Positions 3,380-5,945 of a stretch of 5,945 nt of DNA are shown in pieces; the first letter of the stretch is position 1; every line of letters starts with the position of its first letter. The notes beneath the pieces were generated by a model that made no database searches, was not told where the DNA came from, and saw only the letters and a list, made by a program, of their open reading frames with translations. The translations under genes and the position numbers were made by a program. Origin of the DNA: a virus (Duplodnaviria > Heunggongvirae > Uroviricota > Caudoviricetes); IMG/VR virus record IMGVR_UViG_3300022692_000031, positions 1 to 5,945 of that record. One strand, written 5' to 3'.

Positions 3380-4438
3380 ATGCTTAACACTGTAAAAATA
3401 TCCAGTTGTGAGTTAATCAACGCCGACTGCCTGGAATTTATCCGGTCGTTACCCGAAAATTCTGTTGACCTGATAGTCACGGATCCGCCGTACTTTAAAG
3501 TGAAGCCTGAGGGCTGGGATAACCAGTGGAAGGGCGACGATGATTACCTGAAGTGGCTGGACCAGTGTCTTGCGCAGTTCTGGCGGGTGCTGAAACCTGC
3601 CGGAAGTCTTTACCTGTTCTGTGGCCATCGCCTGGCATCTGACATTGAAATCATGATGCGTGAACGCTTCAGTGTGCTGAACCATATTATCTGGGCGAAG
3701 CCGTCCGGACGCTGGAACGGGTGCAACAAGGAAAGCCTGAGGGCGTATTTCCCCGCCACAGAGCGCATTCTGTTCGCGGAACATTATCAGGGGCCGTATC
3801 GTCCGAAAGATGCCGGGTATGAGGCGAAGGGCAGGGCACTGAAACAGCATGTGATGGCACCGCTGATTGCTTACTTTCGTGATGCGCGTGCTGCCCTGGG
3901 GATAACGGCAAAACAGATTGCTGATGCCACAGGAAAGAAAAACATGGTGTCGCACTGGTTCAGTGCCAGTCAGTGGCAGTTACCGAACGAAAGCGATTAT
4001 CTGAAATTACAGGTGCTGTTTGCCCGGGTGGCAGAAGAGAAGCATCAGCGGGGTGAACTGGAAAAGCCCCACCACCAGCTGCTGGAGACGTATACTTCAC
4101 TGAACCGGCAGTATGCGGAACTGCAGAGTGAATATAAGCATCTGCGGCGGTATTTTGGCGTGACGGCGCAGGTGCCGTACACGGATGTGTGGACGCATAA
4201 ACCGGTGCAGTACTATCCCGGGAAACATCCGTGCGAAAAACCGGCAGAAATGCTGCAGCAGATAATCAGCGCGAGCAGTCGTCCGGGTGACCTGGTTGCA
4301 GATTTTTTCATGGGGTCGGGTTCGACAGTCAAAGCCGCGATGGCGCTGGGGCGGCGTGCAACTGGCGTTGAGCTGGAGACTGAACGTTTTGAGCAGACGG
4401 TCAGAGAAGTTCAGGATTTAGTCAGTCAGAACGGATGA
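3380..4438 (+). CDS. DNA methyltransferase, beta-class amino-methyltransferase (probably N6-adenine), with no restriction partner in the window
   Basis: 352-aa ORF. The catalytic motif IV DPPY (LIVTDPPYF) is near the N-terminus and the SAM-binding motif I FxGxG (DFFMGSGST) near the C-terminus, the beta-class order seen in CcrM, HinfI and RsrI methyltransferases. Confidence 0.9.
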   Translation: MLNTVKISSCELINADCLEFIRSLPENSVDLIVTDPPYFKVKPEGWDNQWKGDDDYLKWLDQCLAQFWRVLKPAGSLYLFCGHRLASDIEIMMRERFSVLNHIIWAKPSGRWNGCNKESLRAYFPATERILFAEHYQGPYRPKDAGYEAKGRALKQHVMAPLIAYFRDARAALGITAKQIADATGKKNMVSHWFSASQWQLPNESDYLKLQVLFARVAEEKHQRGELEKPHHQLLETYTSLNRQYAELQSEYKHLRRYFGVTAQVPYTDVWTHKPVQYYPGKHPCEKPAEMLQQIISASSRPGDLVADFFMGSGSTVKAAMALGRRATGVELETERFEQTVREVQDLVSQNG

Positions 4439-4478: not shown

Positions 4479-4554
4479 GGCCCTTTAGCTCAGTGGTGAG
4501 AGCGAGCGACTCATAATCGCCAGGTCGCTGGTTCAAATCCAGCAAGGGCCACCA
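4479..4554 (+). tRNA. tRNA with anticodon CAU, ileX/ileZ-like (tRNA-Ile2, lysidine type; an anticodon-only caller would say Met)
   Basis: Manually folded 76-nt cloverleaf: acceptor GGCCCTT/AAGGGCC, D-stem GCTC/GAGC, anticodon loop CTCATAA, T-arm GCTGG-TTCAAAT-CCAGC, encoded CCA. The overall sequence closely resembles E. coli ileX as I remember it. Confidence 0.85.
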
Positions 4555-4563
4555 TATCACATA

Positions 4564-4640
4564 CCGCCATTAGCTCATCGGGATAGAGCGCCAGCCTTCG
4601 AAGCTGGCTGCGCGGGGTTCGAGTCCTCGATGGCGGTCCA
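4564..4640 (+). tRNA. tRNA-Arg, anticodon UCG
   Basis: Manually folded 77-nt cloverleaf: acceptor CCGCCAT/ATGGCGG, D-stem GCTC/GAGC, anticodon stem CCAGC/GCTGG with loop CTTCGAA, T-arm CGGGG-TTCGAGT-CCTCG, encoded CCA. The 5' C1 is unusual but pairs with G72. Confidence 0.75.
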
Positions 4641-4918: not shown

Positions 4919-5347
4919 ATGTATTGCCGTGCTGTACCGGTTCTTGTTTTGATATTAGCCAGTCTGACAACTGGCTGCACAAAAGATGTATCGACAAATA
5001 ATCATGATGCTTCTCTGTATCACTCAGATAAATTAATAAAGTCGCAAAATTTGAGCTCATCGGAACGTACCCCTGATGCCAGTGAAGAAATCCGGCAGTA
5101 TGCCATTCAGGTCAGGAAAGCCATAGAAGAACAGTTAAAGGATGCGAGTAAGTATTCAGGAAAAGAGTGTTCACTGAGAATGTATATGGCCCCGAATGGT
5201 CTTCTGCTACAGGTTAAAAGAGAAAGCGGTGATCCCGATTTATGTCGTGAAGCGATGAATGCAGTAAAGAATGCTGATATACCATCACCACCGTCTTCAG
5301 GAGTATATAAAGCATTTAGAAATGGCGTGCTGGATTTTAAACTCTGA
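4919..5347 (+). CDS. Putative secreted lipoprotein homologous to TolA C-terminal domain III
   Basis: 142-aa ORF with GGAG 8 nt upstream of the ATG. The N-terminus has a hydrophobic signal (AVPVLVLILASL) followed by LTTGC, a lipobox-like cysteine. Residues about 60-142 align at roughly 50 percent identity with my recollection of the E. coli TolA C-terminus (YAGQIKSAIESKFYDASSYAGKTCTLRIKLAPDGMLLDIKPEGGDPALCQAALAAAKLAKIPKPPSQAVYEVFKNAPLDFKP), including both cysteines. Confidence 0.8.
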   Translation: MYCRAVPVLVLILASLTTGCTKDVSTNNHDASLYHSDKLIKSQNLSSSERTPDASEEIRQYAIQVRKAIEEQLKDASKYSGKECSLRMYMAPNGLLLQVKRESGDPDLCREAMNAVKNADIPSPPSSGVYKAFRNGVLDFKL

Positions 5348-5350
5348 CAG

Positions 5351-5380
5351 GGGGAGAAGATTTTCTCCTGTCCTGATGAT
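5351..5380 (+). terminator. Weak terminator-like hairpin just after the lipoprotein stop
   Basis: Stem GGAGAA, loop GATT, stem TTCTCC, followed by TGTCCTGATGATTTTGG. Imperfect T-tract. Confidence 0.3.
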
Positions 5381-5636
5381 TTTGGGGCGCTGGAAAGATA
5401 TTGTGCTGTGAAGTGTTAAATCCCTCACAATTCAGTAAGTTGACAGTTGCCTGTCAGACTGAGCATTTGTTAAAAAAATTTCGCATGGTGAATCCCCCTG
5501 TGCGGAGGGGCGACTGGTGAACGGTATGATCTCTTTGATGATCGTAAGCGAGAATACGCGGGTTTGGTGTCACCGGGCTGAACTCACCGGGAGGCACCCG
5601 GCACCATGCTCATGGTGATACAGAAATGCGGCTTCA

Positions 5637-5660
5637 GCCCCTCTCCGGAGGGGCTTTCTT
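5637..5660 (+). terminator. Rho-independent terminator for + strand transcripts
   Basis: Stem GCCCCTC, loop TCCG, stem GAGGGGC, followed by TTTCTT. Confidence 0.5.
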
Positions 5661-5666
5661 ATGGAC

Positions 5667-5695
5667 AAAAAAAGCCCGCGCTGGGAGACGCGGGC
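5667..5695 (-). terminator. Rho-independent terminator for - strand transcripts
   Basis: On the - strand this reads GCCCGCG-TCTCCCAG-CGCGGGC followed by seven T. With the + strand terminator 7 bp to its left it forms a convergent pair. Confidence 0.55.
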
Positions 5696-5814
5696 GGCAA
5701 GGAATAAACAATAAAACGTGAAGTAATACTTCAACTGGCGAATAATACCCGACAGTAATCACTCTGCGCAATAGCGTGGCCTTTTTCGAATTGCGGGCTG
5801 TAGTCTCCCTTCTG

Positions 5815-5945
5815 CCGGGTGTCCTGGTTGCAGATTTCTTCATGGGGTAGGGTTCGGCAGTTAAAGCAGCGATGGCGCTGGGGCGTCGTGCAACTGGCGT
5901 TGAGCTGGATACCGGGCGTTTTGAACAGACTGCGCAGGAAATCAG
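5815..5945 (+). pseudogene. Decayed 3' fragment of a second DNA methyltransferase gene (runs past the window edge)
   Basis: About 130 nt are roughly 85-90 percent identical to the 3' end of the intact methyltransferase gene (4283-4418). In the equivalent frame, motif I reads FMG-stop-GSA because TAG at 5848-5850 replaces TCG; there is no upstream coding sequence or start. Confidence 0.75.

Follow-up and report, generated by a model that had tools for sequence, protein, structure and literature searches.

A probable convergent pair of Hfq-binding small RNA genes downstream of the moron in a lambdoid Stx-type prophage

What is encoded by a stretch of about 430 bp, without any long open reading frame, that separates a moron gene from a truncated methyltransferase gene in a prophage? 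The question was raised by a viral sequence of 5,945 nucleotides (IMG/VR record IMGVR_UViG_3300022692_000031), the whole of which is referred to below as the window. A first-pass annotation, made from the letters alone, had described positions 5381-5810 as a region holding two terminators that face each other, several GC-rich inverted repeats and a possible minus-strand small RNA of about 70 nt. Our analysis leads us to propose, with a probability of about 0.85, that the region is a convergent pair of Hfq-binding sRNA genes of the kind carried downstream of the moron by lambdoid Stx-type prophages.

Gene order in the window

The window corresponds to the late-regulatory part of an E. coli prophage that is lambdoid and Stx-phage-like. 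Outside the region of interest, it contains the following features:

551-1600: DUF968 gene
1613-1987: RusA
Ending at 2805: antiterminator Q
3380-4438: DNA methyltransferase gene
4479-4640: tRNA(CAT) and tRNA-Arg
4919-5347, plus strand: moron, a 142-aa lipoprotein-like ORF with a TolA C-terminal domain (Pfam PF06519, E 5.7e-23)
5813-5945, plus strand: pseudogene, the 3' fragment of a second DNA methyltransferase gene, listed by RefSeq as a partial methyltransferase pseudogene

The TolA-like lipoprotein gene fills the moron slot, which is the place of stxAB in Stx phages; its product is named 'cell envelope integrity protein TolA' in RefSeq. At the other end of the region, the methylase fragment stands where the nanS-p esterase gene usually flanks the sRNA module. 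Positions 5815-5930 of this fragment are 89.7% identical by blastn to positions 4283-4398 of the upstream methylase gene, and the junction looks like the product of a recombination event that concatenated two moron cassettes. Between the two, no ORF longer than 69 aa overlaps 5381-5810, as had been noticed at first sight, and six ORFs of 33-69 aa tested there gave no match in Pfam.

Some other features of the window were noted in passing. A strong terminator lies directly 3' of Q on the plus strand (2820-2903, with CCCGCCGCCTGGCGGG then TTTTTT at 2888-2903), at the position where the pR'-proximal terminator and a StxS-type short transcript are expected. The tRNA at 4479-4554 (plus strand) is called tRNA-Met (anticodon CAT) by ARAGORN and tRNA-Ile (ileZ) by RefSeq and by the Sakai annotation of the identical gene. 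The window holds two tRNAs (ileZ, argN) instead of the usual three, argO being the missing one. Finally, the sequence TGTCCTG is present as a microhomology at the junction of the sRNA module and the methylase fragment.

STnc100 on the plus strand

The whole window was searched against Rfam with cmscan, as the first-pass annotation had recommended. A single very strong match was obtained, to the STnc100 sRNA on the plus strand, far above the gathering score of 47 bits for this family. The match is full length, covering model positions 1-206 of 206 with no truncation. The plus-strand features are:

5412-5453, plus strand: conserved left edge of the module, leader or promoter region of STnc100, containing TGTTAAAT (5414-5421) and CTCACAATTCAG
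5454-5666, plus strand: STnc100 sRNA (Rfam RF02076; 172.4 bits, E 3.9e-40)
5636-5663, plus strand: intrinsic terminator of STnc100, stem 5636-5655 of 8 pairs with tail TTTCTTAT (terminator scan)

The GC-rich inverted repeats reported in 5480-5636 do exist, and they are the helices of the STnc100 covariance model. The plus-strand terminator, placed at 5637-5660 by the first-pass annotation, was recovered by the terminator scan as the stem 5636-5655 followed by TTTCTTAT and is the last helix of the Rfam model. Both elements had been seen correctly; what went unrecognised is the complete STnc100 gene to which they belong.

Judged by its sequence, the RNA encoded at 5454-5666 is the same as EcOnc27, EcOnc05 and sRNA103, and a relative of PasD. 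STnc100 is a computational name. In strain Sakai it designates the Hfq-binding RNAs EcOnc27 (prophage Sp5) and EcOnc05 (prophage Sp4) (PMC4104026, PMC7873438, PMC12711010), and in EDL933 the RNA is known as sRNA103 (Gruber and Sperandio 2015; PMC7873438, PMC12711010). EDL933 has 11 copies, which are transcribed (PMC5331693). A relationship to PasD of EPEC (PasD1/PasD2) has been described in a preprint of 2026 (10.64898/2026.05.13.724894). Expression and Hfq association of the homologues are documented by CRAC, Northern blot and RNA-seq (PMC4104026, PMC5331693). In Stx phages STnc100 lies 75 nt after stx2B (PMC12370729), and its variants downstream of stx2 show a statistical link to HUS risk (PMC12711010).

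The 5' end of the RNA was estimated from conservation. Among 76 distinct related modules conservation rises sharply at about 5412, and the Northern sizes published for EcOnc05 and EcOnc27 are 222-247 nt (PMC4104026). Taken together, these two observations place the 5' end probably near 5425-5430, upstream of the start of the Rfam model. At this conserved 5' edge, positions 5424-5429 (plus strand) read CUCACA. The same motif has been reported from EPEC RIL-seq in targets of the PasD seed UGUGAG, and the agreement may be a coincidence.

The location of the gene is also that of known STnc100 copies. In the window, STnc100 comes after Q, the methylase, the tRNAs and the TolA-like moron. This layout, with STnc100 flanked by the moron and by the nanS-p/lysis genes, recurs in 933W, an Stx1 phage, phi296 and Sakai Sp4. 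The homologues in 933W, Stx1 phage and phi296 score between 158 and 208 bits.

The minus-strand gene and the conservation of the module

On the opposite strand, and to the right of STnc100, the following features were delineated:

5771-5742, minus strand: proximal promoter P1, with -35 TTGCGC at 5771-5766, an 18-nt spacer and -10 TATTAT at 5747-5742
5736-5667, minus strand: predicted 70-nt EcOnc08-type Hfq-binding sRNA, AGUUGAAGUAUUACUUCACGUUUUAUUGUUUAUUCCUUGCCGCCCGCGUCUCCCAGCGCGGGCUUUUUUU, matching a Sakai CRAC peak and an EPEC RIL-seq sRNA
5719-5733, minus strand: 5' hairpin formed by the palindrome, with a 6-bp stem and a 3-nt loop
5702-5696, minus strand: seed CCUUGCC, single-stranded, directly 5' of the terminator
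5695-5667, minus strand: intrinsic terminator, stem 5695-5674 with 7 of 8 pairs GC, then U7 at 5673-5667
5764-5788, plus strand: conserved terminator-like hairpin, CTGCGCAATAGCGTGG then CCTTTTTCG, overlapping the -35 of P1
5772-5812, no strand assigned: conserved right flank of the module, which in Sakai lies within the EcOnc21 Hfq peak of the long minus-strand transcript

The individual elements pointed out on this strand by the first-pass annotation were all retrieved. The strong terminator claimed at 5667-5695 corresponds to a scanned stem at 5695-5674 followed by TTTTTTT at 5673-5667, the imperfect palindrome of 5718-5735 is GTGAAGTAATACTTCAAC at exactly those positions, and the promoter hexamers, given as roughly 5744-5775, lie at 5771-5766 and 5747-5742 with an 18-nt spacer. 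The terminator scan listed 15 terminator-like sites, compared with 5.7 +/- 2.5 in shuffled sequences, and the first two were the plus-strand stem 5636-5655 and the minus-strand stem 5695-5674, separated by a stem-to-stem gap of 18 bp. These short stems, missed by a repeat search using 10-nt arms, come from the terminator scan and the Rfam alignment. It was also observed that the 3' arm and tail of the plus-strand terminator (5651-5660, GGGCTTTCTT) are 90% complementary to 5668-5677 (AAAAAAGCCC), which is the A-tract and 5' arm of the minus-strand terminator, so that slight readthrough would give the two sRNAs complementary 3' ends.

The predicted minus-strand RNA is identical at 66 of 70 nt (94%) to the alleles of both Sakai Sp4 and EPEC E2348/69 PP6, which correspond to RNAs detected experimentally. 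In Sakai, the allele is EcOnc08, an Hfq-CRAC peak of E. coli O157 prophage Sp4 (1179938-1180010, minus strand; PMC4104026 Table S2). The peak consists of TCGCC plus the corresponding 70-nt body up to the U-tract, and starts right after the -10. In EPEC, the allele is the RIL-seq sRNA 'E2348C_1409.E2348C_1408.IGR', presented by its authors as a homologue of EcOnc08/21/42 (PMC8550237), and it ends at the same terminator as the window RNA.

To assess the promoter, we relied on comparison with related modules. The promoter scan called no minus-strand promoter in 5700-5945; the TTGCGC-18-TATTAT pair escaped it because its -35 matches 3 of 6 consensus bases only, and for that reason the site by itself is not above chance and draws its weight from homology. 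A pattern built from the conserved right flank was used to collect 120 IMG/VR loci. Class A, to which the window belongs, comprises 79 modules with -10 TATTAT, and class B, that of AsxR, AgvB and EcOnc03, comprises 41 modules with -10 TAAAAT. The -10 hexamer, which lay outside the search pattern, is conserved at fixed spacing in both allele classes: of 125 related modules, 122 have TAnnAT at precisely 18 nt from TTGCGC, against a background of variable spacers and RNA bodies. The promoters of AsxR, AgvB and EcOnc03 share the layout of P1, and the primary 5' ends of these RNAs were mapped by RLM-RACE (PMC4104026). Because in class B the +1 lies six nucleotides after the -10, transcription is predicted to start at A5736 and to yield an RNA of 70 nt.

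Published sizes are longer. A Northern size of about 271 nt was reported for Sakai EcOnc08/21/42 (PMC4104026), and the EPEC annotation of the same allele spans 182 nt (1444797-1444978, minus strand; PMC8550237), its annotated 5' end at 1444978 being preceded by a TAAAAT hexamer. For transcripts of 182 to about 271 nt, the start would have to lie close to the 5' end of nanS-p or within it. The window stops resembling the other modules at 5812, which is 146 nt from the 3' end of the minus-strand RNA, and the full published transcript with its upstream start was not found in it. Since homology ends at 5812 and the methylase fragment lies beyond, the start of the long form is absent and the proximal promoter alone is left, from which the predicted 70-nt form would be made. 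The initial suggestion of a minus-strand sRNA of about 70 nt was essentially right in pointing to an allele already detected by CRAC in Sakai and by RIL-seq in EPEC, while its length stays a prediction that is shorter than the published sizes.

The minus-strand RNA folds with a predicted energy of -20.9 kcal/mol (z -4.65 versus shuffles), in the order 5' hairpin, A/U-rich single-stranded linker carrying the seed, and terminator. Its conservation was followed in 14 distinct class A variants, as the first-pass annotation had proposed to do with homologues. The seed CCUUGCC is kept in 11 of them, and the terminator helix, with 98% of its positions paired, shows a single compensatory change from G-C to A-U. 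The 5' hairpin received no covariation support: it is perfect in the window variant only, and 13 of the 14 variants have an A.C mismatch at one pair, so that it probably represents neither a conserved RNA structure nor a DNA operator.

Two other assignments of the minus-strand RNA were considered and rejected. It is not PasA or PasC, because the published seed context differs and because both lie beyond the esterase gene, on the opposite side. The weak minus-strand matches in Rfam (OmrA-B with 20 bits, anti-hemB, suhB) are far under the gathering scores and reflect the terminator only.

With 73-92% identity, the block 5425-5816 follows stx2B in 933W and stx1B in Stx1 phages, and it comes immediately after the tRNAs in the stx-negative phage phi296; in each case the nanS-p esterase gene lies just downstream. 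On the minus strand to the right of STnc100, Rfam identified AsxR in 933W and AgvB in Stx1 phage. Among the 121 IMG/VR modules whose left flank is sufficient to judge, the STnc100 core is convergent with the minus-strand gene in all but one; within class A, it is present at the left in 77 modules and absent in 1, the flank being too short in 1. In alignments with 933W, Stx1 phage, phi296, Sakai and EPEC, the most conserved block is the hairpin at 5764-5788, which may act as a second barrier to readthrough into the lysis genes.

Within E. coli, a 473-bp query taken from the region was matched in 2729 of 5426 complete genomes, with as many as 11 places per genome, and the minus-strand allele segment in 1232 of the 5426. 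At least 12 genomes have the exact 473-bp region with 100% identity. [quoted passage not shown] 2014). In contigs representing one genome per species, the core pattern had no match, and the flank pattern gave chance matches plus one 888-bp contig, NZ_JPLE01000080.1. This contig, labelled Xanthomonas pisi DSM 18956, carries an AsxR gene and an STnc100 core and matches Stx2 phage over the approximately 120 nt compared; its sRNA genes are probably E. coli phage contamination of the assembly.

A further locus was observed in NZ_CP027440, a genome that also has the identical 473-bp region. About 1.5-2.6 kb to the right of the window end, it carries four tandem STnc100 copies of 120-141 bits each, upstream of the esterase gene (positions 11079-12058 of the extracted locus). 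After them, at 12060-12200, comes a third minus-strand allele, in which the core is the same, the CCUUGC seed is duplicated and the terminator stem is unrelated. That this paralogous locus keeps core and seed with an unrelated stem argues that selection acts on the core and on the presence of a terminator.

Partners of the minus-strand RNA were examined through its EPEC homologue. The partner table of PMC8550237 gives 767 RIL-seq chimeras with the cfa 5'UTR, 197 with the dppA 5'UTR and 118 with pcm, and includes perA, tir, espC and emrA as further partners. All chimera ends given in that table fall in the 3'-terminal 35 nt or so of the homologue, a part that the window RNA retains. The motif GGCAAGG/GGCAGGG, common to the EPEC RIL-seq targets (PMC8550237 Fig S5, Table S7), is complementary to the seed CCUUGCC, and the cfa 5'UTR contains an exact CGGCAAGG. 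Duplex energies calculated with RNAduplex and locally for the cfa and dppA leaders were no better than those of shuffled sRNA, and the only pairing evidence of weight is the exact CGGCAAGG in cfa together with the published RIL-seq motif.

Possible functions and comparison with known systems

The scheme that we propose builds on the assignment of STnc100 to its Rfam family, on the sequence identity between the minus-strand gene and RNAs detected by experiment, on the homology of the promoter and on the conserved terminator. The plus strand would produce STnc100 as a structured RNA of about 210-240 nt ending at the terminator 5636-5655. The minus strand would produce an EcOnc08-type sRNA from the AsxR-type promoter at 5771-5742, most likely starting near A5736, and transcription would stop at the terminator 5695-5674 with its U7 tail, giving about 70 nt. 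Terminator and U-tail would bind Hfq, and the single-stranded CCUUGCC just upstream would pair with GGCAAGG-type mRNA sites; the corresponding partners in EPEC are cfa, dppA, pcm, tir and perA. Expression of the window copy, and with it the regulation of targets, is presumed.

It is also conceivable, if doubtful, that the minus-strand gene of the window is a dead remnant. The functional RNA would then be the long form only, its promoter next to the nanS-p start codon would have been lost when the methylase fragment was joined at 5813, and the terminator would merely stop stray antisense transcription. The published sizes of about 271 nt (Northern) and 182 nt (EPEC annotation), the EPEC 5' end at 1444978 after a TAAAAT hexamer, the end of homology at 5812 and the silence of the promoter scan between 5700 and 5945 on the minus strand would all fit such a loss. 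However, the proximal promoter is intact, with its -10 at fixed spacing in both allele classes; in class B it yields mapped primary transcripts, and the Sakai EcOnc08 CRAC peak starts right after the -10. Moreover, the RIL-seq chimera ends fall within the 3'-terminal 35 nt or so that the window has retained, the whole Hfq and seed module is kept, and the 100% identity of the 473-bp region in at least 12 genomes gives no sign of decay. We consider it improbable that insulation rather than trans-regulation is the main function of the locus, with the RNAs as by-products. In that case, transcription from the moron and tRNA promoters would be kept out of the lysogen's lysis genes by the back-to-back terminators and the 5764-5788 hairpin, which would also block antisense transcription into the moron. 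Two strong convergent terminators accompanied by a third plus-strand terminator-like site, always inserted between the moron and the nanS-p/lysis genes, would fit such a device, and a review gives no known reason for the convergent arrangement. Against this, both RNAs have homologues that bind Hfq in abundance and have specific partners, class B alleles at the locus have proven trans functions (AgvB on GcvB, AsxR on FnrS), and seed and core persist at a locus with a replaced terminator sequence. Both roles could coexist.

Finally, the idea that the region is the decayed 5' part of a methyltransferase gene, which the first-pass annotation had itself put forward as an alternative, or a set of small-protein genes, is almost certainly wrong. 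A RefSeq 'DNA methyltransferase' pseudogene does lie under the BLAST matches, and PHANOTATE predicts small ORFs here in phage phi296. Yet when positions 5348-5945 were compared with the intact gene by blastn, similarity was confined to 5815-5930, with nothing upstream; the six short ORFs have no Pfam match, and indels between related modules have lengths that are not divisible by three.

A more specific extension of the convergent pair to the rearranged prophage is rather unlikely as a whole. According to it, the window would make the 70-nt primary RNA only, and the two classes would be interchangeable cassettes behind one conserved promoter, and would converge on the same host pathway. AgvB would free dppA by sponging GcvB, the EcOnc08-type RNA would contact the dppA and cfa leaders directly, and a G-to-A substitution of the window in a GU-rich stretch would retune this contact.

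The pair is real and has already been described: STnc100 is in Rfam, the convergent pairs were reported by Tree et al. (2014), and the minus-strand allele is EcOnc08/21/42 and the EPEC sRNA. The current picture is unchanged by our finding, which is mainly a matter of annotation, RefSeq leaving the stretch unannotated or calling it a methyltransferase pseudogene where there are two sRNA genes. Between a fifth and a half of complete E. coli genomes have the module. Its minus-strand allele is not represented by any Rfam family and has been named only as EcOnc08/21/42. Both RNAs have homologues that bind Hfq and contact mRNAs for virulence functions (tir, perA, espC) as well as for the envelope or metabolism (cfa, dppA).

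Compared with the STnc100 copies of other phages, that of the window has the same position downstream of a moron and, like them, ends in an intrinsic terminator; at 73-92% identity it is a sequence variant, and it follows a TolA-like lipoprotein gene whereas stx precedes it in Stx phages. The minus-strand gene shares with EcOnc08, EcOnc21, EcOnc42 and the EPEC sRNA the same body, seed, terminator and proximal promoter, in the same slot convergent with STnc100. Seed and terminator stem are identical to those of Sakai and EPEC, and one loop base of the terminator is A in the window and U in the two strains. Among the 4 substitutions of the window, one completes the 5' hairpin and another, from G to A, breaks a 10-nt perfect match of the Sakai/EPEC allele to the CA-rich dppA leader, a match that is not significant. 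From 5813 on, the window has the methylase fragment in place of the upstream 110-200 nt of the long transcript described in the literature and of the promoter presumed for it.

With AsxR (RF02703), AgvB (RF02702) and EcOnc03, the window RNA has in common the slot, orientation and flanks, the TTGCGC-18-TAnnAT promoter and a position 3' of the moron and antisense to the late transcript. All are short RNAs ending in a GC stem and a U-tract, and AsxR, AgvB and EcOnc03 are Hfq-dependent. The window RNA is nevertheless not a member of the AsxR/AgvB families: their covariance models gave no match in the window even at E<=10, compared with 88 bits in 933W and 57 bits in Stx1 phage. The bodies of AsxR, AgvB and EcOnc03 align poorly with it, the conserved 42-nt 3' region of these RNAs is absent in the window, and its predicted 70 nt compare with 51-60 nt. 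AgvB acts in trans on GcvB and AsxR on FnrS (PMC4104026), and the entries examined in the partner table of PMC8550237 name no sRNA partner of the EPEC homologue. Because the RIL-seq partners of this homologue are mRNAs, the window RNA resembles an ordinary seed-pairing sRNA more than a sponge for sRNAs.
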